A stretch of 16,632 bases of DNA, taken from an uncultured Deinococcales bacterium (GTDB lineage: Bacteria > Deinococcota > Deinococci > Deinococcales > JAAFIG01). Within the stretch, counting starts at the first letter, position 1; every line of letters starts with the position of its first letter. Below, one piece after another: positions 1 through 14,851 of the stretch. Both the position numbers and the translations under genes were made by a program. The notes under the pieces were generated by a model. It did no database searches, was not told where the DNA came from, and saw only the letters and a program-made list of their open reading frames with translations. The stretch lies in NCBI GenBank assembly GCA_964247135.1, contig CAXTTL010000100.1:1-16632 (forward strand), given 5' to 3'.

Positions 1-162
1 TCAGTGTACGTCAGGGTTGCGTTTTAAAAATGAATGGGTTTTGGCTTCAATTGTCCGAGCTTCAAACAAGGCTTTTGCGTTGGTCAGTAGACTGTTCATA
101 CAGATAAGCACGTGTTCTTGAGTGGGGGATTTGAAAATTTAAGGTTTTGACCAACTCGAGTT

Positions 163-1047
163 TCAAGCCAGATCAAACTTGAATAATGTGTGTGCCGGTT
201 TGTGGGTTTCGATCAGATCGCGCAGCAAATCCAGGGTCAAGGCTTCGGGTTTTTTGTTCAACTTGACCCAGAAGACAAACGCCTCTTTGGGGTCTTCGGT
301 CACGTCGGGCGTCAAACCCGTGCAAATTTCGATCATGCGTTCCAGACCGTATTTGGTGCCGCGCCAATGGTAGAGGGTCATGGCTTCGGCAACCAGTTCT
401 CGCTTGCGGCGTTCGGGCATCCTCGAGTAGACCTGAATGCTGAGCCAGCCACCCAGCCACTCGAGCAATTCGGCGGGGGCGGTGCGCGGGTCAAAATAAA
501 ATTCGATGGCGTCGGTGCGCCACTCGAGTGGCTCCCAGACGGTTTCAAAAATTTTCATGAAGCGGTTCATGAAGTCCGACTCTTGAAAGATCACGGGCAG
601 GTCCTGGGTGTACATGGCTTGATCGCTCAAGACAAACGGCGTCGGGTGCTTTGGGCGCGGTGCAATGTCGGGCGCTATCAACAAATCAAACTCGAGTTCT
701 GGGGCTTCCTCGGAGACTGGGACCTCTTCAAAATCTTGGCTGATGCTGTCGCGGTAGGTGATTTTGAACGGACCAATTTGCAACAGCACGCCCTTGATGA
801 GCGGGTACGGTTGATTGGCGACCAGTTTGTAACCCGCCACGAATGTCCCGTACTGACTGCCGAGGTCTGTGATGAGCACCGCCTGTTCGGTGACGTTCAA
901 TTCGGCGTGGCGCTTGGACACCAGCGGCAGGTTTAAGGGCAAATCGTTTTCAGGGGTGCGCCCAATGGTCAGCACCCCTGGTTGCAGTGTCAACGTGTTG
1001 ACCACGCTGCCTTGCAGTTGAACCACCAATTGTCCAGTGCTGGTCAT
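163..1047 (-). CDS. FHA domain fused to a phage tail / baseplate wedge (P2 gpI-like, TIGR02242-type) domain; probable contractile injection system component
   Basis: N-terminal FHA motifs (LTIGR, VSKRHA, ITDLGSQYGTFV, LQIGPFKITY). Acidic/Pro-rich linker. C-terminal LPVIFQESDFMNRFMKIFE..YFDPRTAPAELLEWLGGWL..LYHWRGTKYGL..HKPAHT pattern recognised as phage tail protein I family. SD-like GGGAGAGG directly upstream of ATG 1047. Confidence 0.85.
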   Translation of the reverse strand: MTSTGQLVVQLQGSVVNTLTLQPGVLTIGRTPENDLPLNLPLVSKRHAELNVTEQAVLITDLGSQYGTFVAGYKLVANQPYPLIKGVLLQIGPFKITYRDSISQDFEEVPVSEEAPELEFDLLIAPDIAPRPKHPTPFVLSDQAMYTQDLPVIFQESDFMNRFMKIFETVWEPLEWRTDAIEFYFDPRTAPAELLEWLGGWLSIQVYSRMPERRKRELVAEAMTLYHWRGTKYGLERMIEICTGLTPDVTEDPKEAFVFWVKLNKKPEALTLDLLRDLIETHKPAHTLFKFDLA

Positions 1048-1101
1048 GCCTCTCCCGTTCCCCTCGAGCTGAAGTTGCTGTGGTTCATGTCCGACGAGAT
1101 T

Positions 1102-1107
1102 ATTTTA
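1102..1107 (-). promoter_or_regulatory. possible -10 element (TAAAAT) for the FHA-tail gene
   Basis: Reverse complement of 1102-1107 is TAAAAT; a second TAGAAT lies at 1122-1127. No clear -35. Confidence 0.3.
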
Positions 1108-1172
1108 CGATACCGCTCGAGATTCTATCCTCATTTTCCTTATGGGATGGTTTGGCTGTGGCAGCGGGCGGT

Positions 1173-1185
1173 GGCGACACCCTAC
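1173..1185 (-). repeat. degenerate GTAG-type REP remnant
   Basis: Reverse complement GTAGGGTGTCGCC matches the REP start GTAGGGTGCGCC (5278, 16514) with a one-base insertion. Confidence 0.35.
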
Positions 1186-1188
1186 TCA

Positions 1189-1224
1189 AAAGCAATCAGT
1201 ATTTTGATTTTCTTTGATTGACTT
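1189..1224. promoter_or_regulatory. putative DeoR-family operator (10-bp repeats)
   Basis: TGATTTTCTT (1205-1214) and TGATTGACTT (1215-1224) in tandem, plus an inverted copy TGATTGCTTT (reverse complement of 1189-1198); overlaps the -35 box. Confidence 0.55.
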
Positions 1225-1246
1225 TTAGCTTCAAATTCAGTAACCT
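1218..1246 (+). promoter_or_regulatory. sigma70-type promoter of the sugar operon
   Basis: TTGACT (1218-1223), 17-bp spacer, TAACCT (1241-1246). Confidence 0.7.
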
Positions 1247-1290
1247 TGGCAAACTCTAGACATCTTCAACCCGTTTTGAAAGGACTCGCA

Positions 1291-2055
1291 ATGCTCGAGC
1301 AACGGCTTCGTACCATTCAAGAACACCTGTTTGCCCGTGGTGTTTTGAACATTGACGAGCTGGTCGAAATCACGCGCTCCTCGCCCGCCACGGTGCGCCG
1401 CGACCTGAGCAAACTCGAGCAAGGCGGTGTGATTGAGCGAACCCACGGTGGCGCTCGGCTGGCAGAGTCGAGCAACCATGAAGTCGCCTTCGGCTTGCGC
1501 GAGGGTGAAAATTTCGAGGTCAAACGCGCCATCGGTCGCGCCGCCCACGCCCTGTTAAAACCTGGCAGTACCGTTTTAATGGATTCTGGCACCACCGTTT
1601 TACAGCTCGCCAAAGCCGTCCGTCTCGAGCCGATGCCGCTGACCGTGATCACCAACGGGCTGGCGTTGGCGCAAGAACTGGTCAGCGTGCCAGAAGTGAA
1701 TGTGATCTTGCTGGGCGGTACATTGCGTGCCGACAACCTCTCGAGCGTCGGACCGTACACCGAAAAACTGCTCTCCGAATTCTGGTGCGATCAACTGTTT
1801 TTGGGCGCGACCGCCATCGGTCTGGACGAAAACCTGACGACCCTCGACGCGAATGAGGCAAGCATCAACCGCAAAATGCTGGAACGCACCAAGCAAAGTA
1901 TTTTGCTGCTCGACTCGAGTAAATTTGGTCACAGCGCACCGTACCGTGTCACCAACCTGCTGGGCATTTCGCAGATCATCACCGATTCAAAACTGAACAC
2001 GGCATGGTCGAACCGTTTGGAAACCCTGGGTGTTCATTTCAAAACCGTTCGTTAA
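1291..2055 (+). CDS. DeoR/GlpR family transcriptional regulator (AgaR/LacR-like)
   Basis: HTH SPATVRRDLSKLE..RTHGGA; sensor domain DSGTT, VITN, LLGG, DSSKFG. Start moved from 1246 to ATG 1291 (SD AAAGGA upstream; 1246 lies inside the -10 box). 254 aa. Confidence 0.93.
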   Translation: MLEQRLRTIQEHLFARGVLNIDELVEITRSSPATVRRDLSKLEQGGVIERTHGGARLAESSNHEVAFGLREGENFEVKRAIGRAAHALLKPGSTVLMDSGTTVLQLAKAVRLEPMPLTVITNGLALAQELVSVPEVNVILLGGTLRADNLSSVGPYTEKLLSEFWCDQLFLGATAIGLDENLTTLDANEASINRKMLERTKQSILLLDSSKFGHSAPYRVTNLLGISQIITDSKLNTAWSNRLETLGVHFKTVR

Positions 2056-2085
2056 CTCGAGTGTCGATTCATCAGGAGGCGCACC

Positions 2086-3015
2086 ATGACCGCTTCAACC
2101 GCTGCAAACAAACTCGAGAAACGCCGCAGCAAAGGCTCGAGCCTTCGCCGCGAGGAGGCACTGTGGGGTTTGGCACTGATTCTGCCGAGCACCTTGGGCA
2201 TTGTGATTTTTGCCATTTTACCAATTCTGGGCAGTTTTGGGATTTCGTTTACCGACTGGGGCGGCTTGAGCCTGCCCAACTGGACGGGTCTGGAGAATTA
2301 CAAACAGGCGCTCGGCGATTCCAAAGCCATCGAATCGATTGAACGCACCCTGATTTTTACCGTGATTTCCGTGCCCCTGGGTTTGGTGGTGGCGGTTGTG
2401 CTGGCGGCACTGATTCAAAATTTAAAGCTCGAGAAAGTCAAAACCTTTTTTCGCACGCTGTATTACCTGCCGATGGTCACAATTGGCGTGGCGACCGCGC
2501 TCTTGTTTAAAGTCTTGTTCACCGCCCAGGGACCAATCAATCTGCCACTCAATTTGTTCGGCATTCAGGGACCCGCCTGGCTCGACTCGCCAGATACGGT
2601 ATTGACCGCCATCGCCATTTACAGCGTTTGGCAGGGCGCAGGCTCGAGCATCATTTTGTTCTTGGCGGCGCTCGCCAACGTGCCCAAAGAACTCTACGAG
2701 GCGGCGCAGATCGACGGCGCTCAACCGTTTCGGCTGTTCTGGCACATCACCCTGCCCATGATTAGCCCCACGATTTTTCTGGTACTGATTTTATCTTTGA
2801 TCGGCAGCCTGCAAGTCTTTGAGGCGGTGCTGGTCATGACCAAAGGCGGTCCTGGCGACTCGAGTATGACAATTGCGATGTACATCTACAAGACCGGTTT
2901 TAATTACTTCAAAATGGGTTATGCCACCGCGCTGGCATGGTTGCTTTCCCTGGCGCTGGTGGTCTTGATCGTCTTGCAGTGGCGCTTGCAAAAATCCTGG
3001 GTGCATTATGAATAA
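2086..3015 (+). CDS. carbohydrate ABC transporter permease (CUT1, MalF/UgpA-like)
   Basis: Multiple TM helices, GLENY, FRTLYYLP, EAA loop ELYEAAQIDGA, MGYATA; SD AGGAGG at 2074-2079. Confidence 0.95.
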   Translation: MTASTAANKLEKRRSKGSSLRREEALWGLALILPSTLGIVIFAILPILGSFGISFTDWGGLSLPNWTGLENYKQALGDSKAIESIERTLIFTVISVPLGLVVAVVLAALIQNLKLEKVKTFFRTLYYLPMVTIGVATALLFKVLFTAQGPINLPLNLFGIQGPAWLDSPDTVLTAIAIYSVWQGAGSSIILFLAALANVPKELYEAAQIDGAQPFRLFWHITLPMISPTIFLVLILSLIGSLQVFEAVLVMTKGGPGDSSMTIAMYIYKTGFNYFKMGYATALAWLLSLALVVLIVLQWRLQKSWVHYE

Positions 3016-3862
3016 TTCTGTCCAGGACAAGAATATCCTCCCTCGAGCAAGGCGCGAACGTTGGAGCATTGTTATCGTTTTAGCGCTGGGCAGCATTTTG
3101 ATTTTTGTGCCGTTTTACTGGATGGTGACGATGTCATTCAAAACCCCAGACGAGGCATATCGCTGGCCACCGACCTTGCTGCCCGAAACCTGGACGCTCG
3201 AGAATTTTAAAGGTTTGTTCAATACCATTCCGTTTTTAAGAATGTTCTGGAATTCATTCTGGACTTCATTTTTGATTGCCTCACTGAACATTTTGACGGG
3301 TGCCCCTGCGGCGTATGCCTTCGCACGACTGCGCTTTCCAGGCAAGGGCACGTGGTTTGGGGCACATCTGCTGTCCATGATCGTGCCCTGGCAAATCACC
3401 ATCATTCCGGTATTCTTGCTGATCCGGTTTTTCGGTTGGTACGACAGCTATATGGCACTAATCGTGCCGAGCATCGCCAACGGCTTTAGCGTTTTCATGC
3501 TGTATCAATTTTTCAGAAGCCTGCCCAAATCGCTCGAGGAAAGTGTACTGATTGACGGCGGCAGTTGGTTCACGGCGCTGCGCCACATTGCCCTGCCCAC
3601 CTCGAGCGGGGCGCTTGCGGCGGCATGGCTGCTGGCATTCCTGGGCAACTGGCAATCGTTTTTGTGGCCACTGATTGTGCTGCAATCCGAAGAAAAAATG
3701 GTGCTGCCGGTTGGCTTGCTCTACCTGCAAAATCAGTTCTCGGTCAATGTTCCAGTCCTCATGGCGGGCGCAACCCTGTCGGTGCTGCCCACGATTGTTG
3801 CCTATATTTTCTTGCAACGTTATTTAACCGATGCCGCCATCACCAGCGGCGTGAAAGGCTAA
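3008..3862 (+). CDS. carbohydrate ABC transporter permease (CUT1, MalG/UgpE-like)
   Basis: PFYWMVTMSFK, AAYAFARLRFPG, EAA-like SLEESVLIDGG, WQSFLWPL, C-terminal GVKG; overlaps the previous stop by 8 bp. Confidence 0.95.
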   Translation: MNNSVQDKNILPRARRERWSIVIVLALGSILIFVPFYWMVTMSFKTPDEAYRWPPTLLPETWTLENFKGLFNTIPFLRMFWNSFWTSFLIASLNILTGAPAAYAFARLRFPGKGTWFGAHLLSMIVPWQITIIPVFLLIRFFGWYDSYMALIVPSIANGFSVFMLYQFFRSLPKSLEESVLIDGGSWFTALRHIALPTSSGALAAAWLLAFLGNWQSFLWPLIVLQSEEKMVLPVGLLYLQNQFSVNVPVLMAGATLSVLPTIVAYIFLQRYLTDAAITSGVKG

Positions 3863-3875
3863 ACCATCTTCCAAG

Positions 3876-3902
3876 CTCGAGCCGCAAAACCTCGAGCCGC
3901 AA
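3876..3902 (+). repeat. short direct repeat CTCGAGCCGCAA x2 (15-bp period)
   Basis: Exact 12-bp copies at 3876-3887 and 3891-3902, intergenic, just before the SD of the binding-protein gene. Confidence 0.8.
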
Positions 3903-3916
3903 GCCCAGGAGGTCGT

Positions 3917-5200
3917 ATGAAAAAAGTGTTCGTACTCTCGCTCGCGCTAGCTGGTGCCGCCGTGGTGGCTGCCGCCATCGCCCAGAATTCGGCTGTGACC
4001 ATTCAGTACGCCACCTGGGACGAATCGCGCCGTCCGGTGGACGAAAAAGTGATCAAAGCCTTTGAAGCCTCGCACCCGAACATCAAGGTCAAATACAACA
4101 TCGTGCCCTGGGATGCCTACTGGCAAAAAGCCGCCGCCATGACGGCTGGCGGGGTGACCTTTGACGTGATGTGGATGGATTTGAACAACCTGCCATTTTA
4201 CGTCTCACAGGGGGCGCTCGAGCCGCTGGACATGACGGCTGCCGAAAAGAAGGTGATTCCCGCCGCAATGCTCGCCCCGTACCAAACCAGTTCGGGCAAG
4301 GTTTACGGTTTTCCACTCGGACCCCAGGCGGTCAGCGTCTACGTCAACCGCGATCTGTTTAAAAAACGTGGCGTACCCGTGCCGACCAAAAGCTGGACCT
4401 GGGATCAATTGGTTGCCGCCGCACAAAAACTAACCTATATGGACGGCAACAAAAAAATCTGGGGCATCAACGGGCAAGATTTGCAGATTGACCTCGAGTA
4501 CGGCATGAGTTTCTTTTACACCTTCGGCGGTACAAATATCATCAAAAAAACCGCCACGGGTTATGTTTCCAACCTCGACTCGAGCTTTAAAAGCACCGCC
4601 CAAAAACTCTATGACCTGATTTTCAAATACCATGTTGCGCCGTCCTCCAAAGAGGTCACGCAGGCTGGATACCAGATTTTCCTGGCTGGACAAATGGGCA
4701 TTTACATCGAAGGCACCTGGATGACGGGCGTGCTCAACGGCAATCCCAAATTGAACTGGAGTTACGCCCCGTTCCCAACCCTGAAGGCGGGCGATAAACC
4801 AAGAGCCAGCAGCAGCGCCCACGCCCTGGTGATTCCCAAAGGCGCAAAAGAAAAAACCGCCGCGCTCGAGTTTGCCCGTTACGTGACGACCAATGTTGAA
4901 GCCCAACAATTGATTTCCAACAATGGCTTGCTCGCCACCAATGCCGACGCCTTTAAGAGCCAGTACAGCAAATCCTTACCTGGTCGCAACAGTGAGGTCA
5001 TCCTCGAGCAACTCAAAACCGGCGTGATCATCAATTCTGACGTTCGATTGGTCAGCAATTTGCCCGAGGTTTTGGGCGCCATGAACACCGCCTTTAACCT
5101 GGCTTGGACGGGCAACGGCAAGCTCGAGGATGCCATCAAAAAAGCCAGCACCGACATGGATGTGCTCTTGAAGCAAGCCAAGGTGCTCGAGTTTAAATAA
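3917..5200 (+). CDS. sugar ABC transporter extracellular solute-binding protein (family 1)
   Basis: Sec signal peptide without lipobox Cys (MKKVFVLSLALAGAAVVAAAIAQ); FEASHPNIKV, GKVYGFP, VYVNRDLFKK, WTWDQL motifs; SD AGGAGG at 3907-3912. Confidence 0.95.
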   Translation: MKKVFVLSLALAGAAVVAAAIAQNSAVTIQYATWDESRRPVDEKVIKAFEASHPNIKVKYNIVPWDAYWQKAAAMTAGGVTFDVMWMDLNNLPFYVSQGALEPLDMTAAEKKVIPAAMLAPYQTSSGKVYGFPLGPQAVSVYVNRDLFKKRGVPVPTKSWTWDQLVAAAQKLTYMDGNKKIWGINGQDLQIDLEYGMSFFYTFGGTNIIKKTATGYVSNLDSSFKSTAQKLYDLIFKYHVAPSSKEVTQAGYQIFLAGQMGIYIEGTWMTGVLNGNPKLNWSYAPFPTLKAGDKPRASSSAHALVIPKGAKEKTAALEFARYVTTNVEAQQLISNNGLLATNADAFKSQYSKSLPGRNSEVILEQLKTGVIINSDVRLVSNLPEVLGAMNTAFNLAWTGNGKLEDAIKKASTDMDVLLKQAKVLEFK

Positions 5201-5215
5201 TTTTTTTGAAGATTG

Positions 5216-5239
5216 ATGATTGCCGTGATTTGTTGATAT
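5216..5239 (+). pseudogene. relic duplicate of the 5' end of the pfkB-family gene (MIAVIC-stop)
   Basis: ATGATTGCCGTGATTTGTTGATAT versus ATGATTGCTGTAATTTGTTTACAT at 5398-5421; 20/24 identical. Confidence 0.7.
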
Positions 5240-5277
5240 TCCAAGCTTGAACTCTCACTCAAGCCATTTCCAAATTC

Positions 5278-5376
5278 GTAGGGTGCGCCTCTTGACCCTT
5301 ACAACAGCACCTAGCGGGCTTGGGTCGCCGTGCGCACCGTCTGGAAAGTGCTCTTGGTGCGCATGGCGCACCCCAC
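5278..5376. repeat. inverted pair of GTAG-type REP sequences (REPIN-like), left copy interrupted
   Basis: Left: GTAGGGTGCGCC (5278-5289), ~40-bp interruption, GTGCGCACC (5330-5338). Right: 5356-5376, reverse complement GTGGGGTGCGCCATGCGCACC. Intact relative at 16514-16534. Confidence 0.8.
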
Positions 5377-5397
5377 ACCTCATGTTCTGGAGCTTCA

Positions 5398-6270
5398 ATG
5401 ATTGCTGTAATTTGTTTACATCCTGCCATTGACCGCACCCTCGAGTTGAATACTGCGCTCGAGGTGGGTGGTTTAAACCGTGCGGCTCGGGTGTTTGAAC
5501 GCCCTGGCGGCAAGGGTGTGAATGTGGCGTCGGTGCTGACCAGTTTGGGCGCCGAGGCTTGCGTGATTTTGCCCGTGGCTGGCAGCAACGGCATGAAGCT
5601 CGAGCAATTGCTTCAAAAACAAAACATTTCGAGTTCGGTAATTTCTGTGCCTGGTGAAACCCGAGAGTGCCAGGCGATTTTGGACGGTTCCCAAACGACA
5701 GAAATCAACGAGTCTGGTCCAAGCCTCGCGCCGGATGACCTTCTCGAACTCGAGGCGTTGATTCCAAGTTCGGCACGTTTTGTGGTGCTTTCGGGCAGTT
5801 TGCCGCCAGGTTTGGATGTGCTCGAGTTTGGGGCATTTGTCAAGCGTTTGAGTGTTCGTTACGGGCTTGTGGTGGACACCTCGGGAGTAGCATTAAAAGT
5901 CGCACTCGAAAATGGAGCTGATTTGATCAAACCCAACCAAAGCGAACTCGAGCAATTGGCTTTGACACCCAAGCAACTTTTTCAGAAGTTTGGCACTCGG
6001 GTGCTCCATTCCAAAGGCGCGAATGGACTCGAGTATGTTGGTCCTGAAGGCGGTTTTTCTCAAACCTCGAGCCAGATTGAAGTCATAAGTTCTGTTGGTG
6101 CGGGCGATGCCACGTTGGCAGGATTTTTGTTCGGTCTGGCGCGAGGACGATCAATTCAAGAATCGTTACGTTTTGCCAATGCTTGCGGTGCTGCCGCCTG
6201 TCTCGAGCCTGTTGCGGGCGTGGTCAACCCCCTGAACATCGAGAACTCACTTGGGGTTGTTCATGCCTGA
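5398..6270 (+). CDS. PfkB family hexose-phosphate kinase (1-phosphofructokinase / tagatose-6-phosphate kinase LacC-like)
   Basis: HPAIDRT, PGGKGVNVA, LSGSLPPG, VVDTSG, IKPNQSEL, SVGAGDA. Start at ATG 5398 with SD GGAG (5389-5392); the longer 5320 start runs through REP DNA. 290 aa. Confidence 0.92.
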   Translation: MIAVICLHPAIDRTLELNTALEVGGLNRAARVFERPGGKGVNVASVLTSLGAEACVILPVAGSNGMKLEQLLQKQNISSSVISVPGETRECQAILDGSQTTEINESGPSLAPDDLLELEALIPSSARFVVLSGSLPPGLDVLEFGAFVKRLSVRYGLVVDTSGVALKVALENGADLIKPNQSELEQLALTPKQLFQKFGTRVLHSKGANGLEYVGPEGGFSQTSSQIEVISSVGAGDATLAGFLFGLARGRSIQESLRFANACGAAACLEPVAGVVNPLNIENSLGVVHA

Positions 6271-7204
6271 ATGGATTTTGGGACTCGATGGCGGCGGCAC
6301 CAAGACTGTTCTCGCCGTCGCCAACCGCAATGGCATGGTGCATCAGGTCATTGCGGGTGCAGGCATCAATCCGTTTGACAATCCTGCATGGCAAAGCGAA
6401 CTGAGCCGAATCCTGAACCAGGTTTCGGTGACGCCAGATCAACTTGCCTTCTCGAGCTTTGGAATGCCAGGTTACGGCGAATCGGAATCGATTTCCGCAG
6501 CGCAACTGGCGGCGGCTCGAGGTTGGGCGGGTGAACGCTCTGCGGTGCAAAACGATGTCGCGGTGGCGTTCACCGGTGCGCTGGCGGGGCAAGCGGGTGT
6601 GCTGGTTTTGGCGGGAACAGGTTCGATGGCGTGGGCTGAAAATGCCGACCGCGTGATTCGGGTCGGCGGTTGGGGCGAGGGCTTTGGCGACGAGGGCAGT
6701 GCGCATTGGATTGGACTGCAAGCCTTGCAAAAACTGAGTTGGACAATAGATGGACGGCTTTTTGATGCGGAATTTCGACGGGCGTTGCTCGAGCACATCG
6801 GCATCAAGGACAGCGAATTGATTTCTTGGTTTTACGCGCTCAGTCATCCACGACCAAAAATTGCAGCGCTGGCAAAAGCCGTGGACAAGCTGGCGGGTTT
6901 GGGCAACTTGACGGCAAAACACATTTTGCTCGAGGCGGCGCAACACCTCACCCAACTGGGATTCGCGGCGCATAAACAACTTAAACTCGAGCAAACCAGT
7001 TTCAGTTTCGCCGGCAGCGTTTTTAAAAGCCTGACGGTGCGCGAAACCGTGAAGCACAAGCTCTCAAGCCACGGAATTTGGCTCGAGCCTCGTGGCAGTC
7101 CGTTGGCGGGAGCGCTGCTCTGCGCGGCAAAACACGCGGATTGGGACATAAATCAAAGCTGGCTCGAACAAATCAACCAAAACCTTGGAAGGAAAACACC
7201 ATGA
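6263..7204 (+). CDS. BadF/BadG/BcrA/BcrD-type sugar kinase (N-acetylhexosamine/hexosamine kinase-like)
   Basis: GLDGGGTKT, VQNDVAVA, LAGTGSMA, RVGGWGEGFGDEGSAHWIG. ATG at 6263 overlaps the upstream stop. 313 aa. Confidence 0.92.
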   Translation: MPEWILGLDGGGTKTVLAVANRNGMVHQVIAGAGINPFDNPAWQSELSRILNQVSVTPDQLAFSSFGMPGYGESESISAAQLAAARGWAGERSAVQNDVAVAFTGALAGQAGVLVLAGTGSMAWAENADRVIRVGGWGEGFGDEGSAHWIGLQALQKLSWTIDGRLFDAEFRRALLEHIGIKDSELISWFYALSHPRPKIAALAKAVDKLAGLGNLTAKHILLEAAQHLTQLGFAAHKQLKLEQTSFSFAGSVFKSLTVRETVKHKLSSHGIWLEPRGSPLAGALLCAAKHADWDINQSWLEQINQNLGRKTP

Positions 7205-8160
7205 ACGCCACCGAACAAACCATCCTCGAGCAATTTTCCTACTGGCAACAAGCCTTGACGCTTGACCTGAGCGCCGCACAACTCGAGCCTGGACCCGTTG
7301 CCGTGATCGGTTGCGGCACGTCGTATTATTTGGCGCAGAGCATCGCGGCGGCACTGAACCAAACTCCCAATCACGGCGCGATTGCCGTGCCGTCCGGCGA
7401 ATGGCATTTGCGCCGCCGAAGCTATATTCCTGACACCAAAGTCCAAGTTCTGGCACTCTCGAGGAGCGGCAGCACCACCGAAACCGTTGCCGCCGCCAAA
7501 GCCAGCCTGGATGCTGGTGAGCGCGTGATCGGCATCACCTGCGAACTGAACAGTAACTTAGCCAGAGTCAGCTCGCAGTGCGTTTACGCGCCCACGCATC
7601 CGCTCGAGGATATCGTCATGACCACCAGCGCCAGTTTGATGCTGTTGATTGGGCTGGCACTGGCGGGACAAAAAATCTCGAGCGGACAAATTCAAGAGGC
7701 GCAAAAGTTACTCGAGCAGCACAAAAATCAATTTGATGCCTTGATTCAAAACCGCTCACATTTTGTTTACTTGGGCGGCGGCGCATTGTACGGCATTGCC
7801 AGTGAAGGCGCACTGAAATTGATGGAAATGAGCCTCTCGTTTTCCCAGGCGTACCATCCGCTCGAGTACCGCCACGGTCCAATTTCCTTGATCGATGAAC
7901 GCTCGGTGGTCGTGATGCTGTACAGCCCAGAGACGCTCGAGCAGGAAACAAAACTGGTGTCTGAGCTGCGCGAAAAAGGTGCAAAAGTTATCGGTGTTGG
8001 CGGGGCTGGGGATTTGAGTCTTGAGTTATTGGAAACCTCGAGCCTGCGCGGTTTGATTGCCCTGCCAAGCTTGCAATGGTTGGGTGAACGCGTCGCGCAG
8101 TCCAAAGGCTTGAACACCCGCGAACCGCGCCATTTGACCAAAGTGGTGGTGCTGACATGA
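7201..8160 (+). CDS. SIS-domain sugar-phosphate deaminase/isomerase (AgaS/GlmD/FrlB-like)
   Basis: IGCGTSYY, LSRSGSTTET, EGALKLMEMS, EYRHGPIS, C-terminal PRHLTKVV (GlmS isomerase-like tail); no glutaminase domain. ATGA overlap at 7201-7204 with SD GGAAGGA. 319 aa. Confidence 0.92.
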   Translation: MNATEQTILEQFSYWQQALTLDLSAAQLEPGPVAVIGCGTSYYLAQSIAAALNQTPNHGAIAVPSGEWHLRRRSYIPDTKVQVLALSRSGSTTETVAAAKASLDAGERVIGITCELNSNLARVSSQCVYAPTHPLEDIVMTTSASLMLLIGLALAGQKISSGQIQEAQKLLEQHKNQFDALIQNRSHFVYLGGGALYGIASEGALKLMEMSLSFSQAYHPLEYRHGPISLIDERSVVVMLYSPETLEQETKLVSELREKGAKVIGVGGAGDLSLELLETSSLRGLIALPSLQWLGERVAQSKGLNTREPRHLTKVVVLT

Positions 8161-9455
8161 ACTCTCGAGAACCCATCAAACTGGCGGTGGTCGGCGCGGG
8201 TTCTCGAGGCGCAATTTATGCACATTATGCCCTCGAGTACCCAGATCAGCTCGAGATTGTTGGGGTTGCCGAACCCAGGGATTTTTACCGCAATCAAGTG
8301 GTTAATCAGCACAACATCCAGCCCGAAAATGTCACCAGCGATTGGCACGATTGGCTGACGCGACCAAAGTTTGCCGATGGCATCATCATCACCACACCCG
8401 ACGCCCTTCATGCCAAACCTGCGATTGCTTTTGCCAAACACGGTTATCATTTGCTGCTCGAGAAACCGATGAGTCCAAATGAAACCGATTGTCGTGCCAT
8501 TGTCGCCGCCGTGCGCGAGGCGGGCGTGATGCTGGCGGTCTGCCACGTCATGCGGTACACGCCGTACACCAAATTGCTCAAGAAAATTCTGGACTCGGGG
8601 CAAATCGGCAACATCATTTCGGTGCAACACCTCGAGCCTGTCGGGTTCTGGCATCAGGCGCACTCGTTCGTGCGCGGCAACTGGCACAACGAGGCACGCT
8701 CGAGTTCGATGCTGTTGCAAAAATCGTGTCACGACCTGGACTGGCTGAGTTACATCGTCGGGAAGCCCTGCGTTGCCGTCTCGAGCTTTGGCAGTTTGAG
8801 TCATTTTAAAAAAGAATTTCGTCCCGTTGGCGCGGCTGATCGCTGCCTGGATTGCGGCGTCGCCAATGAATGTGCCTACGATGCAAAACGCTTTTACTTT
8901 GACAATTTGGCGGAAGGCAACACCGACTGGCCACTGAACGTCATCACCACCGACATCAGCGAGGCAGGGATTCTGGCGGCGCTGCGAACTGGGGATTACG
9001 GGCGTTGCGTTTACGGCGGTCTGGACAACGATGTGGTCGATCATCAGGTCGTCAACCTCGAGTTTGAGGGTGGGGTGACGGCAAGTTTCACGATGACCGC
9101 CTTCACCAAACCGCGCGACCGCGAAACCAGAATTTTTGGTACAAAAGCCGAATTGTACGGAAATGGAAATATTCTGGAAATATACAATTTTTTAACTCGA
9201 GAAACCACCACCATCAATACCGAACTCGAGTCCGATGGTTCGATTTTATCTGGGCATGGCGGCGGCGATGAAAACGTCATGCGGGCATTTATCCAAGCCC
9301 TTTCGGAGAATAACCCTGAGCATATTTTATCGGGCGCAACCCAAACTTTGGAAAGTCATCTGATGGTTTTTGCCGCCGAAAAAGCCCGCAAAGAAAACCG
9401 TGTCATGAGCGTCGACCACGACAATTCCAAGCTTTTTGAAAACGAATCCAGATGA
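8157..9455 (+). CDS. Gfo/Idh/MocA family NAD(P)-dependent oxidoreductase (YteT-like)
   Basis: VVGAGSRG, IITTPDALH, LLEKPM, KSCHDLD, GHGGGD; ATGA overlap with the SIS gene. Confidence 0.92.
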   Translation: MNSREPIKLAVVGAGSRGAIYAHYALEYPDQLEIVGVAEPRDFYRNQVVNQHNIQPENVTSDWHDWLTRPKFADGIIITTPDALHAKPAIAFAKHGYHLLLEKPMSPNETDCRAIVAAVREAGVMLAVCHVMRYTPYTKLLKKILDSGQIGNIISVQHLEPVGFWHQAHSFVRGNWHNEARSSSMLLQKSCHDLDWLSYIVGKPCVAVSSFGSLSHFKKEFRPVGAADRCLDCGVANECAYDAKRFYFDNLAEGNTDWPLNVITTDISEAGILAALRTGDYGRCVYGGLDNDVVDHQVVNLEFEGGVTASFTMTAFTKPRDRETRIFGTKAELYGNGNILEIYNFLTRETTTINTELESDGSILSGHGGGDENVMRAFIQALSENNPEHILSGATQTLESHLMVFAAEKARKENRVMSVDHDNSKLFENESR

Positions 9456-9577: not shown

Positions 9578-11200
9578 ATGTTCAATTGCTTTTCTTCACT
9601 CTTAATACTCAGCTTTGCCCTAGGGTCATGCTCGAGCCTGCCTATGGTCGTTGACTCGCCGCTCGAGCTTCAAACCAACAAAACCAATACCGTCAAATAT
9701 ACCGCCAGCAACAAGGATTTCCCCAACCCCGAACGCGGGTTTTACGCCGACTCGGAGTATTACCAAGCTTCACCGGCAACGCTGACAACCGCCCAATTAA
9801 AAGCCCTGATCCTCGAGAAAGCCAGCGCGGGTTATGCGGTCAGTTTGTTGCACCGCAGTTACTTTCTGCCCGAACTCATCGACACCCCAAAGCTTCCCAG
9901 CTCGTTTCTCAACACCGTGCGCCAAGACTTGCAGGCGGCTCGAGCCGCAGGGCTGAAAGTGATTTTGCGTTTTGCCTACCGCACCATTGCGCTCGAGGAT
10001 TGCAATGGCTTGCCACCCGCCGAACAACCTGCCTGCATCGCCAAAGCCAAAGCCGAGCACGACCCAACCAAACAAACCATCCTCAACCACCTCGAGAATT
10101 TGCGCGGTGTGCTCTCGAGCTTTGAAGACGTGATCGCTTACGTTGATGCGGGTTTGCTCGGCACCTACGGCGAGTGGGCGTATGCCACCGACCAAGGCGT
10201 GGGTTCGTTGCTCTCAGGATTTGCAAACAGCCTCGCGCCAGACCCACAATACGGTTATTCAGACGGTAACGTGCCAAACGCCAACACCAAAGAAATTATT
10301 GCCAAGTATCTGGACGTATTGCCCGAAACCCGAGCCATCGCCATTCGCACCCCAGAACAACGCGTGATGCTGCTCGAGGATTCGTTTGATCCTCGGGTTT
10401 GGAATCCCAAAAAGACCACGATTACAGATGAGACTGCTTTTGAAGATTCGGCATTGGCACGACTTGGGGCGCACAACGATTGCTTCCTCGCCTCGAGCGA
10501 CGATTTTGGGACGTACTATTACGCCAATTATCCTGGCGTGGACCTTGCGACGCAAATTCAAAAAGAAAAAGACTACCTCAGCGCCAACAACTTGTTCGTC
10601 CCGATGGGCGGTGAAACCTGCGCTGTGAATGCCGATGTCTCGAGTGCAGGTTATCCCGCTTACGCCAAAGCCGAACTGCGCAAAATGCGTTGGAGCACCT
10701 TAAACACCGATTACAACCAAGATGTCCTGACGGCAATGGGCGCAACGTTGACCGACGCCAAGAAAAACTTGGGTTACCGTTTTGTGCTGCAAAGCTCAAG
10801 CGTGCCAAGCAAAGCCGTGCGCAATGAAAACATCAACATCAAGTTCACCGTCAAAAACGAAGGCTACGCCAGCCCGTTCAACCCGCGCAAGCTCGAGGTG
10901 GTGTTTGTCAAAACGGGCAGCGCCCCAATTCGCCGTGAGGTCAAAATAGACCGTGAACACAACACCGACCCACGTTTTTGGAAACCGCTCGAGCACAAGG
11001 TTGTCAGCCTGAGTGTCAAAGCCCCGAGTGATGCTGGAACGTATTCGGTGTATGTAAATTTACCCGATCCTCTGTTGCCAAACGATGCGCGTTACAGCAT
11101 CCGTTTTGCCAACGCTGGTTTGTGGGATGAAAGCAAAATCACCGCGATTCAAGCCAGCGCTGCATTCAACACATTGAATCAAAGCATTCAAATTCCTTAA
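9578..11200 (+). CDS. lipoprotein with DUF4874/DUF4832-type domains (putative glycoside-hydrolase-like barrel plus beta-sandwich)
   Basis: Lipobox LGSC (Cys18); motifs FPNPERGFY, ARAAGLKVILRFAY, AGLLGTYGEW, RLGAHNDCFLAS..DFGTY, PMGGET, LGYRF, YSIRFAN; SD GGGAGG at 9567-9572. Confidence 0.82.
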   Translation: MFNCFSSLLILSFALGSCSSLPMVVDSPLELQTNKTNTVKYTASNKDFPNPERGFYADSEYYQASPATLTTAQLKALILEKASAGYAVSLLHRSYFLPELIDTPKLPSSFLNTVRQDLQAARAAGLKVILRFAYRTIALEDCNGLPPAEQPACIAKAKAEHDPTKQTILNHLENLRGVLSSFEDVIAYVDAGLLGTYGEWAYATDQGVGSLLSGFANSLAPDPQYGYSDGNVPNANTKEIIAKYLDVLPETRAIAIRTPEQRVMLLEDSFDPRVWNPKKTTITDETAFEDSALARLGAHNDCFLASSDDFGTYYYANYPGVDLATQIQKEKDYLSANNLFVPMGGETCAVNADVSSAGYPAYAKAELRKMRWSTLNTDYNQDVLTAMGATLTDAKKNLGYRFVLQSSSVPSKAVRNENINIKFTVKNEGYASPFNPRKLEVVFVKTGSAPIRREVKIDREHNTDPRFWKPLEHKVVSLSVKAPSDAGTYSVYVNLPDPLLPNDARYSIRFANAGLWDESKITAIQASAAFNTLNQSIQIP

Positions 11201-11204
11201 ACCT

Positions 11205-12971
11205 TCACTCGAGTTCGCCCGACCACAACCGCCGCATTTCCGCGCTGGTTTCCAGCAGTTCCTCGAGCCTGCCAACCCCCGTAATACAACCGTTCTCGAG
11301 CACAATGATGTTGTCGGCGCGTTTTAAGGCGGGCTTTCGATGCGAGACAACCAAACAGGTGGTCTCGCTCGAGTGTTCAAACACCCGATCCCAAAGTTGC
11401 GCTTCGGTGTTGACATCCAGGGCGCTCGAGAGGTCGTCGAAGACCAGCAATTCTGGTTCGCGCACGAACATTCTGGCGGCAGCCGTCCTCGAGACTTGAC
11501 CGCCCGAAAGCTTGACGCCCTTGCTGCCGATTTTGGTTTCAAAACCGTCTTCAAAGCCCAGCAAGTCTTGCTCGAGCACCGCGTTTTTGACGGCTTGCTC
11601 GAGTTTTTTGGGGTCGGCTGGAAGTCCAAGCAAAATGTTTTCGCGCAATGTGCCGCTAAACAGCACTGGCACTTGCGAGGTGTAGGCGACCCGAGGCGGA
11701 ATCAAATCTTGCGCTGTTGCTGGTTCTCCATTCCAGAGCACCGTTCCAGCTTGAGGCTCGAGCAAGCCCAGCATGGCGCGAAGGAGCGTGGTTTTGCCCG
11801 AACCAATGCGTCCAGTGATGACCGTAAAACTGCCGCGCTCGAGGGTCAAGTTGATGTTCTTGATGCCTCGAGCGCTGGTTTCAAACGTATAACCCAAATC
11901 GCGGATTTCGAGGCGTTGCAAGATGTCAGCTTCGGTTTTGACGCTAGGCTCGAGGTTTGGAGTTTTTCCTGAAAGCGCAATTGGATGTGGTTCGATCAGT
12001 TTCTTCTGGTTTGCACCTTGCAGCAATTCGATCATGCGTTTGATGCTGACCCCCGTTTGACGCATGGTGCTCATAAACATTCCAAAAAATTCAGTGGTGT
12101 GCGCTACCCGCTCGAGGTAACTGGCAAAGACCGCAAAATCGCCGATGGTAAAGGTTTTCTCGCGCATTCCCGAGGCTGCCAAGAGCAAAATAAAGCCCGT
12201 GCCAAATTGCACCACATTGCCGTAAATCGCATTTAAAACTTGGGTTTGAACACTGTCGCGCAACAGCGCCGCACGGCGGGCGTCGCCAAGGCGTTTGAAA
12301 TGCGCCATCACCCGAGCTTCCGCACCCGCAACTTGAATGCCCTGCACCGCGCCGAACATTTCACCCAGGGCGCCCGTGACTTTGGCGGTGCTTTCACGGC
12401 TTTGCTCGCGCAGTTTCTCGAGTTTGCTGCCATACAGGTACGTCAGACTCATGACGATGGCGAGCGGCACAAACACCAGCAGGGTGATGCGGGCGTTGAT
12501 CGAAAATAAAATTGCCAAGGCAACCACCAAAAACACCACTCGAGAGCTGATATCGAGCGTCCAGTCGCTGGTCTCCTCGACCATGAATGGATCATCGCGC
12601 ATTGTACTGATGGCTTCGCCCACGCTGACGGGCAGCGCACGTGCGCCTGGACGCTCGAGGATGTGCGCCAGAAGGTTGCGGCGCAAAAGAGCACTGATGC
12701 GAAAGCGCCAGGGAATGTCGGCTGCCATGCCGCCCACAATCGATAAAGCTCGAGCCAGCGCGACCACCAGCACCAGGGCAATGATGGACGTGAGGTTCAA
12801 CTCGAGCGGACGTTTCTCGAGGGTGTCAAAAAAGAGTTTGGCGATCAAACCCTCGAGAAGCGGAATGATGAACACCAGCCCCCACATCAGGGTATTCAGG
12901 GCGTACAACGCGCCCTGTTGCCAGATCATGCTTTTCACGACATGCCAGGTGCTCATGGGCTTGCCGCTCAT
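11205..12971 (-). CDS. ABC exporter, fused TMD-NBD subunit B (non-canonical Walker B)
   Basis: N-terminal TM domain; Walker A GRIGSGKT, signature LSGGQ, Walker B LLVFDD (Asp in place of the catalytic Glu), VSH switch; ATGA overlap with subunit A. Confidence 0.93.
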   Translation of the reverse strand: MSGKPMSTWHVVKSMIWQQGALYALNTLMWGLVFIIPLLEGLIAKLFFDTLEKRPLELNLTSIIALVLVVALARALSIVGGMAADIPWRFRISALLRRNLLAHILERPGARALPVSVGEAISTMRDDPFMVEETSDWTLDISSRVVFLVVALAILFSINARITLLVFVPLAIVMSLTYLYGSKLEKLREQSRESTAKVTGALGEMFGAVQGIQVAGAEARVMAHFKRLGDARRAALLRDSVQTQVLNAIYGNVVQFGTGFILLLAASGMREKTFTIGDFAVFASYLERVAHTTEFFGMFMSTMRQTGVSIKRMIELLQGANQKKLIEPHPIALSGKTPNLEPSVKTEADILQRLEIRDLGYTFETSARGIKNINLTLERGSFTVITGRIGSGKTTLLRAMLGLLEPQAGTVLWNGEPATAQDLIPPRVAYTSQVPVLFSGTLRENILLGLPADPKKLEQAVKNAVLEQDLLGFEDGFETKIGSKGVKLSGGQVSRTAAARMFVREPELLVFDDLSSALDVNTEAQLWDRVFEHSSETTCLVVSHRKPALKRADNIIVLENGCITGVGRLEELLETSAEMRRLWSGELE

Positions 12972-14770
12972 ACCAGCACCTCCTCCAAACCCGTGCGCCT
13001 GAGTTGCGCGAACCTCGAGTTTGGATCGTGCCCAAGGATTTTGGTGCTGCCATGCTCGAGGATTTTTCCATCCTCGAGAATCAAGATTTCGTCGGAACGC
13101 AAAATGGTTTGCAAACGGTGCGCGATGATGATGGCGCTGCGACCCAACAACAGTTTGTTAACCGCCCGCTCGAGCAGCGCTTCGGTGGCGGGGTCGAGGC
13201 GGCTGCTGGCTTCGTCGAGGATGATGACGCTGGGGTTGCGCAAGAAAACCCGTGTGAACGCCAGCAATTGTGCCTCGCCAGCGCTGAGGTTGGCGCTCGA
13301 GAGTTCGGTGTCGAGTTGTTTGGGCAAGCTGCGCACCCAATCGTGCAAGCCCAGTTCCTCGAGCGCAGCCCAAATTCGGGCGTCGCTTACGGTTGGATCG
13401 AAGAAGCTTAAATTCTCGCGGATGCTGGCTTGAAACAGTTCAACATTTTGTGTGACCAGCGTGACGCGACTGCGCACCTCCTCGAGTTTGGCACTGGTGA
13501 GCGGGATGCCGTTCAAGCGAATCTCGCCGTGTTGCGGATCGTAAAATCGCATCAACAATCTTGCCAGCGTGGTTTTGCCGCTGCCCGTGCGCCCCAACAA
13601 GCCAAGCACTTTTCCAGGCGCAAGCTTGAACGAAATATTCTCGAGCACTTTTTCAGGGTTGGTATCTTCAAGCCCTGGCTCAGGTTTGACCTCATCCTCG
13701 TAGCCAAAATGCACCCCACGAAACTCCACCTCGAGCGCCCGTTCAGACCAGTTCGCGCCAGGTCCGTCAAGCAATTTGGATTTGGTCGCCAGCAGTTCAG
13801 TCACCCTCGAGATGCCCGCGTCGGCGCGTTGCAATTCTTGGAGTTGATTGCGAATTTGATCGAGCGGCTCGGCGAGCAATCTGGTGTACTGGTAAATCAA
13901 ATAGACCGTGCCGAGCGAAATGACCTTGTGCTGATAGAGCGGCGCGGCAACCCCGAATGCCAGCGCCGTACCGAGCGCCATCAAAACCTCGAAGACCACC
14001 CACATGCTGCCGCCGAGCATACTGCTGCGCCAGACCACCGGATACCAGGTTTTCAGGCGTTCAACAAAACTGCGCATCACATATGGCGTCGCACCAGAAG
14101 AGCGAATGTCTTCAGTGCCCGAAAGTTGCTCGCCGATAAAACCAAAGAAAATTGCGTTTTGCTCGCGTACCGCCTTCCAGTACGGCGTGCCAAGGTTGCG
14201 AACTCGAGCCAAAACCAGCATTGCCAGAATCGAAAAGACCGTGAGACTGATGCCGATGCGCCAATCCTCGAGATACATCACGACCAACACGCCCAAGAGC
14301 AGCAAAATGTTGCCGCCAAGGTGAATGCTTAAATTGGAGAAAAACGCGGCAAGCGTGCTGACATCGCCGTCCACACGTTCGATCAACTCGCCAGGGGTTC
14401 GGGCTTTGTGAAATGAAAGATCAAGTTTGAGGCAATGCTCTGCCAAATTTGCCCGAAGTGCGTTGGTTGCCGTCCAACCAACTCGAGTGCTGAAATAGGT
14501 CGCGCCGACGTTCAAAACCTGCTGAAAAAAAGACGCGCCGATGAATACGGCGGCGGCTTGAATCAGTTCGGATTGTGCGCCGCCCTTTTGCGCGGTGTCC
14601 ATAAAAAACCTGACGATTTGCGGATTCAAAAGCTGTAAACCCACACTGAAAAGCAAACACACCGCCATCAAGACCACGCTGGCACGCTGCGGTTTCAAGT
14701 ATTCCTCGAGCAGCCCAAAATACTGGCGCACCGGAATTTGAACTTTGGGGGGTTTGACGACGGCGCTCAT
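12968..14770 (-). CDS. ABC exporter, fused TMD-NBD subunit A (degenerate signature motif)
   Basis: TM domain; Walker A GRTGSGKT, signature LSAGE, Walker B IILDE, IAH switch. Start set to ATG 14770 because the 14857 start would overlap the divergent gene. 600 aa. Confidence 0.92.
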   Translation of the reverse strand: MSAVVKPPKVQIPVRQYFGLLEEYLKPQRASVVLMAVCLLFSVGLQLLNPQIVRFFMDTAQKGGAQSELIQAAAVFIGASFFQQVLNVGATYFSTRVGWTATNALRANLAEHCLKLDLSFHKARTPGELIERVDGDVSTLAAFFSNLSIHLGGNILLLLGVLVVMYLEDWRIGISLTVFSILAMLVLARVRNLGTPYWKAVREQNAIFFGFIGEQLSGTEDIRSSGATPYVMRSFVERLKTWYPVVWRSSMLGGSMWVVFEVLMALGTALAFGVAAPLYQHKVISLGTVYLIYQYTRLLAEPLDQIRNQLQELQRADAGISRVTELLATKSKLLDGPGANWSERALEVEFRGVHFGYEDEVKPEPGLEDTNPEKVLENISFKLAPGKVLGLLGRTGSGKTTLARLLMRFYDPQHGEIRLNGIPLTSAKLEEVRSRVTLVTQNVELFQASIRENLSFFDPTVSDARIWAALEELGLHDWVRSLPKQLDTELSSANLSAGEAQLLAFTRVFLRNPSVIILDEASSRLDPATEALLERAVNKLLLGRSAIIIAHRLQTILRSDEILILEDGKILEHGSTKILGHDPNSRFAQLRRTGLEEVLV

Positions 14771-14778
14771 GAGCCTCG

Positions 14779-14784
14779 AGTGTA
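14779..14784 (-). promoter_or_regulatory. -10 element TACACT, 8 nt before the ABC exporter start (near-leaderless transcript)
   Basis: Minus strand reads GGTACACTCGAGGCTC-ATG; only a weak GAGG close to the start, no well-spaced SD. Confidence 0.55.
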
Positions 14785-14851
14785 CCGTTTGAACTGACGC
14801 TCGAGAATGGCATGATGGCTTACTCGGGCTTAAATCAGGATAAGCTTTGTC

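Follow-up and report, generated by a model that had tools for sequence, protein, structure and literature searches.

The contig CAXTTL010000100.1 of an uncultured Deinococcales bacterium (GenBank assembly GCA_964247135.1), analysed here over its whole length of 16,632 nucleotides and hereafter called the window, carries near one end a gene whose predicted product is the small baseplate wedge subunit (Cis12) of a phage-tail-like contractile injection system (CIS), fused at its N-terminus to an FHA domain. This FHA-Cis12 fusion is a conserved family, and in most of the related loci the gene is closely followed by that of a membrane protein combining a Hanks-type kinase domain with an FHA domain of its own. 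The reading favoured here, with a confidence only a little above even, is drawn from this architecture and from synteny: the FHA domain on the baseplate would read phosphothreonine made by, or present on, the membrane kinase-FHA protein and would thereby couple an extracytoplasmic signal to the docking, firing or assembly of the particle.

The wedge subunit and its FHA domain

The equivalents of Cis12 in other contractile machines are P2 gpI, Mu gp48, T4 gp7 and TssG of type VI secretion machines (T6SS). The window protein carries a domain of this kind behind its FHA domain and a linker. The FHA model of Pfam (PF00498) matches residues 27-92 of the 294-residue protein (E 5.7e-15; 55.9 bits, cut-off 20.7), Tail_P2_I (PF09684) residues 165-273 (E 2.7e-13; 50.4 bits, cut-off 20.6) and the NCBIfam 'phage tail protein domain' TIGR02242 residues 149-251 (E 8.3e-28; 97.1 bits, cut-off 51.85). 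The matches in PHROGs are tail-protein families (phrog_48, E 1.4e-10). Three further models stay below their thresholds, namely Mu gp48 (PF10076, 29.2 vs 37.4 bits), the P2 gpI equivalog (TIGR01634, 24.1 vs 30.05) and T6SS TagH (TIGR03354, 30.4 bits vs 120.25). The equivalog NF053768 (CIS12_fam, 715 positions) gave 78.4 bits against a cut-off of 860, with profile positions 472-572 alone covered; as judged from this match, the window protein shares one domain with NF053768 and is not a member of that equivalog.

An AlphaFold2 model was computed from an alignment of 114 family sequences. Its mean predicted local distance difference test score (pLDDT) is 82.5, and it consists of a beta-sandwich (residues 6-99), a stretch with pLDDT below 50 (residues 103-123) and a helix/strand domain (residues 145-293). 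The FHA domain of the model superposes on the solved FHA domains of MDC1, DgcB, FhaA and EmbR with Z of 16-17 and a root-mean-square deviation of 1.1-2.4 Å over 91-103 residues; the structure-comparison list was filled by FHA domains and has no bearing on the fold of the C-terminal domain. The top Foldseek match of the model is chain A of 9gtp, the CIS baseplate of Streptomyces coelicolor (E 5.8e-9), and the family profile aligns with chain E of the same entry at E 2.2e-23 (profile positions 160-307, chain residues 21-182 of 190). The 190-residue sequence occurs in six chains of 9gtp and is labelled 'Secreted protein' in the entry. We infer that this chain is Cis12. Six copies fit one Cis12 per wedge: the wedge of the Streptomyces particle CIS-Sc is described as two Cis11 and one Cis12, and the particle as having no fibres (eLife 2025, PMC12237407).

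An earlier note on this DNA had placed an FHA domain at residues ~1-100, followed by an acidic Pro-rich linker and a tail protein I-like domain of ~150 residues. All three parts were recovered, together with tail and baseplate matches for the C-terminal half by both profile and structure. The linker string quoted in that note occurs exactly in the translation, and the gene lies on the minus strand, which had been left unstated. Between the window gene and its orthologue in L013, a locus of a related Deinococcales genome, the ratio of nonsynonymous to synonymous substitution rates (dN/dS) is 0.08 overall, 0.07 in the FHA domain, 0.18 in the linker and 0.04 in the C-terminal domain. The gene is under purifying selection.

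The pocket of FHA domains is marked by the motifs GR, SxxH and S/T-x-N-G-T. Its residues are kept across the 114 family sequences: G29 in 114, R30 in 113, S44 in 107, H47 in 114, S64 in 112, G67 in 114 and T68 in 111. The FHA domain looks competent as a phosphothreonine reader and may bind phosphothreonine peptides, with the reservation on the motif Asn given below. The linker varies within the family in both length and sequence. Before the wedge domain it holds a semi-conserved PPRP(T/S)xPxP motif (positions 129-137; window 637-663, minus strand), in which R131 is found in 89 of the 114 sequences and P135 in 86, and position 133 is Thr or Ser in 57. In the window protein the stretch is APRPKHPTP, with Lys133. 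The motif is a possible phospho-acceptor or docking arm. A role of the linker Thr as universal phospho-acceptor was considered and rejected, Thr or Ser being present in 57 of the 114 sequences only and absent from this position of the window protein.

Distribution, gene order and the membrane partner

Both PF09684 and PF00498 were found in 118 of the 120 homologues listed out of 207 (E ≤ 1e-5). In 80 related loci, the two parts lie in one open reading frame (ORF) in 76; in L080 and L084 a frame change separates them, L089 breaks off at the contig end, and L092 is truly without FHA. The loci belong to Deinococcota (17), Chloroflexota including Thermomicrobia (47), Acidobacteriota (6), Gemmatimonadota (6), Methylomirabilota (1), Rhodothermota (1), Myxococcota (1) and an unclassified lineage (1), so that the spread across phyla raised in the earlier note extends to seven named phyla. 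A search with the C-terminal domain alone against 1.84 billion cluster representatives gave 4117 matches at E ≤ 1e-3 and 72 at E ≤ 1e-30. Among the best 150 of these matches, 113 have an N-terminal FHA domain by the family hidden Markov model, and many of the other 37 are short (109-257 residues). The sole FHA-less Cis12 among the 80 loci is a 175-residue protein with Tail_P2_I only (L092:9926-10450), from a Blastocatellales metagenome-assembled genome (MAG). Neither an FHA nor a kinase domain occurs in its 20-kb locus, which retains a protein of the Ig-like C-terminal type downstream; it is the single absent/absent case for the link between FHA and kinase.

Gene order in the 80 loci was read by tblastn with the CIS proteins of the present genome. 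The usual order is sheath, tube, unknown ORF, tube, eCIS_core, LysM tube initiator, VgrG, (PAAR), gp25, baseplate J, FHA-Cis12 and kinase. Baseplate J ends at most 600 bases upstream of FHA-Cis12 in 58 of the 70 loci with at least 2.5 kb of upstream sequence. Downstream, a kinase domain starts on the same strand within 600 bases in 50 of 70 loci and within 4 kb in 61 (loci with at least 1.5 kb of downstream sequence). The gap between the Cis12 and kinase genes is often below 10 bases, and in Thermogemmatispora carboxidivorans the two overlap by 4 bases. FHA-Cis12 and kinase are both present in T. carboxidivorans (locus L088), in Calidithermus chliarophilus (L024) and in Roseiflexus (L081-L087). 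One group of Chloroflexales loci has, after FHA-Cis12, a gene with the FHA start and the Ig-like part but without the kinase domain; the kinase follows 3-5 kb further. In a Roseiflexus MAG, FHA-Cis12 and kinase are separated by a methyltransferase gene of the protein-lysine methyltransferase type (L085:7923-9587; domains MethyTransf_Reg and PKMT_2nd). The same order is tabulated for Roseiflexus sp. RS-1, where RoseRS_1667, with FHA and Tail_P2_I, is followed by a methyltransferase and two Pkinase plus FHA genes (Geller 2021, PMC8213781, Supplementary file 9).

The kinase gene occupies the position of the tail-fibre genes in extracellular contractile injection systems (eCIS) and that of cisA in Streptomyces. 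Fibre genes come after Tail_P2_I/Afp11/12 in ~90% of eCIS, and Tail_P2_I proteins have been proposed as fibre adaptors, with neither FHA nor kinase mentioned in the accessible text (2026, PMC12923769). The gene cisA follows closely on the baseplate genes and is required for contraction and cell death (PMC12237407).

The window is the entire contig C100 of an assembly of 386 contigs and 5.09 Mb (84% complete, 1.8% contamination), and the nearest homologues of its Cis12 protein, at 92-94% identity, are in Deinococcales MAGs. In L013 the order is FHA-Cis12, a 1313-residue kinase-FHA protein, a 155-residue ORF, LysM tube initiator and VgrG, followed by a convergent 151-residue ORF and baseplate J. 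By blastn, window positions 1-1300 (reverse complement) correspond to L013 9905-11047, and the end of contig C1 to L013 from 11079 onward. Contigs C100 and C1 are taken to abut because the L013 matches of both ends adjoin, and C1 carries the same gene set. By synteny with L013, the gene directly downstream of the window ORF would be that of the 1310-residue kinase-FHA membrane protein at the end of C1.

The partner is built of a kinase domain, a linker, an FHA domain, Ig-like domains (FixG_C/NEW3-type) and a hydrophobic 19-mer, with 200-600 residues after it. The 19-mer was found in 52 of 54 full-length partners, two of them with a second, weaker one, at residue ~540-940 and mostly 630-760; in the partner of the window protein it spans residues 735-753. 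The predicted topology is that of a single-pass membrane protein. As a separate observation, the activation-loop region of the window's partner (L012:14600-18532, minus strand, on C1; orthologues in L013, L014 and L016) is without the Thr residues of the family consensus (TATG...GTPAYMSPEQ).

The genome has two Tail_P2_I genes, both FHA-fused, two sheath, two baseplate J and two VgrG genes. One operon, on contig C97, runs from sheath through tube, a 127-residue ORF, tube, a 910-residue eCIS_core protein, LysM tube initiator, VgrG, PAAR, gp25 and baseplate J to FHA-Tail_P2_I. Contig C10 carries gp25, sheath, tubes and eCIS_core proteins, one of them with lipase and muramidase domains; C1 carries kinase-FHA, LysM tube initiator, VgrG and baseplate J; and pairs of a cap (Pvc16_N) gene and a WHD/AAA ATPase gene lie on C23 and C221. 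The core CIS set is complete in the genome (sheath, tube, tube initiator, spike, PAAR, gp25, baseplate J, Cis12, cap and AAA ATPase), most of it in two copies; PAAR was seen on C97 only, no genome search having been made for a second. The genome holds two CIS, and the genes of the one to which the window gene belongs are distributed over three loci or more. Other contractile genes, whose absence the earlier note had named as refuting its proposal, just as it had a C-terminal half without tail or baseplate match, are thus present: sheath, tube, spike, gp25, baseplate J, cap and AAA ATPase each belong to both sets. No fibre-like Pfam family was found in the annotated ORFs of C97, C10 and C1. The reading as a prophage tail was rejected in view of the eCIS_core (DUF4157), Pvc16 cap and AAA ATPase genes and of the absence of phage genes from the window and the annotated ORFs of the CIS contigs. 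Both Cis12 types occur in four related Deinococcales MAGs (L013 with L025, L014 with L023, L015 with L021, L016 with L017). In a quick tree, the deep branches of which are weakly supported, the window protein groups with L013-L016 and the C97 protein with L017 and L021-L025.

Table 1. Coordinates in the window of the fusion gene, its parts and its surroundings
Feature	Position	Strand	Description and evidence
FHA-Cis12 fusion gene, whole	163..1047	-	294 residues, ATG start, stop codon 163-165; ORF list, translation, Pfam/NCBIfam/PHROGs, dN/dS
FHA beta-sandwich, residues 6-99	751..1032	-	Pfam FHA part residues 27-92 = 772-969; Pfam, AlphaFold2 model, structure comparison, residue conservation
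Acidic, Pro-rich disordered linker, residues 100-145	613..750	-	pLDDT <50 at 103-123; C-terminal end = APRPKHPTP
Cis12 / Tail_P2_I / gp7-like baseplate wedge domain, residues 146-294	166..612	-	TIGR02242, PF09684, 9gtp profile and Foldseek matches
Non-coding stretch 3' of the gene to the contig end	1..162	-	in L013 continues ~31 bases to the start of the kinase-FHA gene
Intergenic region 5' of the FHA-Cis12 gene, shared with the divergent DeoR-family regulator gene	1048..1245	.	ORF list, Pfam
DeoR-family regulator gene	1246-2055	+	part of a sugar-use operon, not of the injection system

A scan of window positions 1-1400 gave no promoter-like site with a sigma-70-like model, which is uninformative for this phylum, and one terminator-like site, inside the gene, against 2.2 expected; none lies in 1-162. 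No RNA run was listed in the sequencing-run search, and seven runs contain at most 0.21 of the sampled words. The remainder of the window is taken up by other functions. Positions 1246-9455 (plus strand) hold a sugar-use operon behind the DeoR-family regulator, with two ABC permeases, a solute-binding protein, a PfkB kinase, a BadF/BcrA-type ATPase, a SIS-domain protein and a GFO/IDH/MocA oxidoreductase. Positions 9578-16486 hold a DUF4874/DUF4832 protein (540 residues), two convergent ABC exporter half-transporters (588 and 629 residues, minus strand) and an alpha-galactosidase (544 residues) with a weak CBM35 match below the cut-off.

Several genes of interest accompany the CIS loci on the other contigs. 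On C10, a 1098-residue protein combines lipase_3, eCIS_core (DUF4157) and N-acetylmuramidase domains (L006:5538-8834, minus strand), beside a second eCIS_core protein of 818 residues and a 656-residue protein without Pfam match; all three are candidates for cargo of the split CIS or for factors in lysis. The CIS loci of C97, C1 and C10 are bordered by genes for Uma2-family nucleases and by DUF433/DUF5615 pairs (L005:1565-2134; L012:7427-8760; L006:17622-18288), and XisH/XisI genes lie near the locus of C1; these genes may mark rearrangements that scattered the second CIS. C1 also encodes a ribonucleotide reductase large subunit (1527 residues; L012:10-4593, plus strand) with an intein carrying LAGLIDADG homing-endonuclease domains. 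Two of three Pvc16_N cap-like proteins (L094:1483-2316 on C23; L095:1162-2031 on C221) have a C-terminal CarboxypepD_reg-like domain, and the third cap gene has no adjoining ATPase gene and lies beside a Het-C-like ORF.

A proposed phosphorylation-dependent coupling and its alternatives

In the favoured reading, each of the six wedges would expose one FHA domain on a flexible tether of ~45 residues at the baseplate rim. These domains would recognise phosphothreonine, either in the cytoplasmic portion of the receptor-type Hanks kinase encoded in the operon or on its substrate protein, so that an envelope or stress signal outside the membrane could bring the free-floating particle to the membrane and give licence for firing or assembly. 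The logic would be like that of PpkA and Fha1 in T6SS, with the reader built into the baseplate. Kinase motifs were read in 66 sequences (64 of 69 extracted ORFs of at least 280 residues and the genome's own two). The full catalytic motif HRDxKPxN was found in 47, most of which also have DFG and the VAIK Lys; eight have another motif with Asp, ten are without Asp and one is gapped.

Several findings weigh against this reading. At the place of the canonical FHA Asn (SxNGT) the window protein has Tyr66; just 64 of the 114 family sequences have Asn there, and the C97 paralogue has Lys. In the sub-lineage of the window, baseplate J is not adjacent and lies ~7 kb away in convergent orientation in the reconstructed locus. 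The window gene has the divergent DeoR gene upstream and does not directly follow baseplate J, whereas the C97 paralogue does. In paralogous loci of the C97 type, the kinase is not downstream of Cis12, and in C97 the kinase-FHA gene is divergent from sheath. No linked PP2C phosphatase was found; the three PP2C_2 matches of the genome are on C40, C2 and C276, none in a CIS locus, and none is beside the kinase in L088 or L024. The particles described in this clade are unattached in the cytoplasm (PMC12998442), and therefore any membrane docking must be transient.

Further points of the same kind come from the kinases. Of the ten without catalytic Asp, seven are from Deinococcales. The window's partner and its three orthologues have HGEIEPEN and DFA, not HRDxKPxN and DFG, and in the two Calidithermus kinases Arg replaces the VAIK Lys and NFG stands in place of DFG. 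Three further Deinococcales kinases read H(G/W)QLEPEN, and the C97 kinase HGDLNPEN and DFG. Compared with L013, dN/dS in the window's partner is 0.037 in the kinase domain, the lowest value, 0.093 in the FHA domain and 0.10 in the Ig-like part. The degenerate kinase domain is not decaying, as this strong purifying selection indicates, and the partner looks like a conserved pseudokinase. Because it has lost the catalytic Asp, the phosphate in the sub-lineage of the window would come from another kinase, e.g. the C97 kinase with HGD and DFG, or the contact may now be phosphate-independent. A complex prediction with kinase residues 1-705 and whole FHA-Cis12 scored 0.01 in both runs; the controls were not folded, and the result carries no weight either way.

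The proposal of the earlier note, a contractile apparatus tied to Ser/Thr kinase signalling through a built-in FHA domain, stood as regards the machine and its pairing with a kinase, whereas the phosphothreonine coupling is what architecture and synteny suggest, and the word 'extracellular' may not apply to particles that are cytoplasmic (PMC12998442). Of the nearby kinases and PP2C phosphatases that it suggested looking for, a kinase is present, by synteny with L013 and by the short distances seen in most loci, with the reservation that the partner, with HGE and DFA, may be a pseudokinase; a linked PP2C phosphatase was not found.

A bolder version of the favoured reading can be put forward as a tentative possibility. 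The FHA domain would be a phosphorylation-gated substitute for a tail fibre: six tethered readers would dock the particle on the cytoplasmic side of a stress-sensing receptor kinase, provided that this is phosphorylated, docking would trip the baseplate, and the particle would fire into the membrane of its own cell for regulated lysis or effector release. This would be the missing trigger of the Chloroflexota/Deinococcota clade, which is without cisA. In Deinococcales, the pseudokinase receptor would be phosphorylated in trans by the kinase of the paralogous system, which would wire the two CIS sets together.

An alternative without any anchoring, which we regard as unlikely, is that phosphorylation licenses assembly. 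The kinase would phosphorylate Cis12, e.g. in the PPRP(T/S)xP linker, or another baseplate protein, and FHA contacts between CIS subunits or with the FHA domain of the kinase protein would control wedge assembly. Such a scheme agrees with the presence of two FHA domains in the system, on Cis12 and on the kinase protein, with the semi-conserved linker Thr/Ser, with the unattached state of the particles and with the example of T6SS, where TagH is both binder and substrate of TagE (PMC13584744). Yet half of the family, the window protein and the C97 paralogue among them, has no Thr/Ser at this place of the linker, and the scheme leaves unexplained a single-pass membrane partner in the gene position of fibres or cisA.

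Somewhat less probable again is a phosphate-independent scaffold, in which the FHA fold is a mere protein-protein module, like the FHA-like cytoplasmic domain of SctD/YscD in the type III secretion system, and links the wedge with either the kinase-like membrane protein or some other part of the CIS. The retention of the phosphate-holding Arg, Ser and His throughout nearly the whole family and the full catalytic motif in most partner kinases speak against it. It counts for most in the lineage of the window itself, in which the partner, though without the catalytic Asp and the DFG Gly, is strongly conserved; the variable FHA Asn, the lack of a linked phosphatase and a weak, sub-threshold Pfam match of the window protein to Yop-YscD_cpl (32.4 bits vs a cut-off of 33.2) are in its favour as well.

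That the gene is an orphan or decaying remnant, a stray prophage-tail or CIS fragment left without a working machine after rearrangement, is very improbable: the gene does stand apart from baseplate J, with sheath and tube genes on other contigs and Uma2 and DUF433/DUF5615 genes near the C1, C10 and C97 loci, but its ORF is intact and under the selection noted above, the same arrangement recurs in L013, L014 and L016, a Cis12-kinase pair without upstream baseplate J is also found in Calidithermus (L024/L029), C. chliarophilus makes particles (PMC12998442), and the window has no capsid or terminase genes by Pfam.

Relation to known systems

Intracellular particles have been reported in Roseiflexus, T. 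carboxidivorans, C. chliarophilus and Deinococcus, in a lineage (IId) placed beside the cytoplasmic CIS of Streptomyces (Gaisin et al. ISME J 2026, PMC12998442). The same report considers that firing or attachment may differ in the Chloroflexota/Deinococcota clade, which has no close cisA homologue; an FHA domain or protein kinase of the present kind is not mentioned in its main text and one supplement. The window's CIS, known here from its genes, probably belongs to the same lineage (IId, Chloroflexota/Deinococcota branch), as the shared homologues of the window protein suggest. For firing of its cytoplasmic CIS, Streptomyces depends on the membrane protein CisA, of which this clade is without a close homologue. 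An FHA-wedge fusion next to a receptor-type kinase in the position of fibres or cisA is a concrete, testable candidate trigger. If the favoured reading holds, control by kinase and FHA would extend from T6SS to phage-tail-like CIS, and the fusion would be a natural example of a baseplate with a signalling domain as targeting module, relevant to the re-targeting of such particles.

Part of this is already in print. The CIS clade was described in 2026, and the enrichment of FHA domains and one gene of this type are in supplementary tables only of 2021: pfam00498 is listed as enriched in eCIS operons, with an odds ratio of 5.59, a false discovery rate of 4.6e-13 and 35 occurrences in 4 phyla, under the label 'Regulatory' (PMC8213781, Supplementary file 4). 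Pkinase is not enriched there (odds ratio 1.24), and FHA is absent from the main text of that paper. The words kinase and FHA do not occur in the main text of PMC12237407, neither is mentioned in the accessible text of Chen 2019 (PMC6899500) or of PMC12210884, and that of PMC3482391 has FHA only with PrsW peptidases. A literature search on FHA with CIS, eCIS or Cis12 returned only T6SS or unrelated papers and none that takes up the fusion or its link to the kinase; supplements on bioRxiv and journals behind a subscription lay outside the search, and an earlier mention is possible. A discussion of the mechanism was not found.

The window protein resembles the Tail_P2_I proteins of the P2 gpI, Mu gp48 and R-pyocin type in its matches to PF09684 and TIGR02242, and the gene of such proteins normally comes after baseplate J. 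It differs from P2 gpI and Mu gp48 in remaining under the thresholds of TIGR01634 and PF10076 and in having no phage genes nearby. To our knowledge, phage Tail_P2_I proteins carry no N-terminal FHA domain. With Cis12 of S. coelicolor (9gtp) it shares a homologous C-terminal domain, the probable membership of lineage IId (PMC12998442), the lack of visible fibre genes and a membrane protein gene after the baseplate genes. Unlike the system described here, that of S. coelicolor has a Cis12 of 190 residues without FHA and a CisA without kinase, whereas the present membrane protein bears a Hanks kinase or pseudokinase, an FHA domain and Ig-like domains.

The closest parallel in signalling is the threonine phosphorylation pathway of T6SS (TagE/PpkA, TagG/PppA, TagH/Fha1), in which the membrane Hanks kinase TagE/PpkA and the FHA reader TagH/Fha1 exert post-translational control (PMC13584744). 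Both systems associate a membrane Hanks kinase, perhaps a pseudokinase beside the window gene, and an FHA reader with a contractile machine. In T6SS, however, the FHA protein is a separate accessory and a PP2C phosphatase belongs to the set, whereas here the FHA domain is fused to the wedge, the kinase has an FHA domain of its own, no phosphatase is linked and the match to the TagH model TIGR03354 stays far below its cut-off. The present system resembles the T6SS pathway but is not a member of it, and its machine is a phage-tail-like CIS, not a T6SS.

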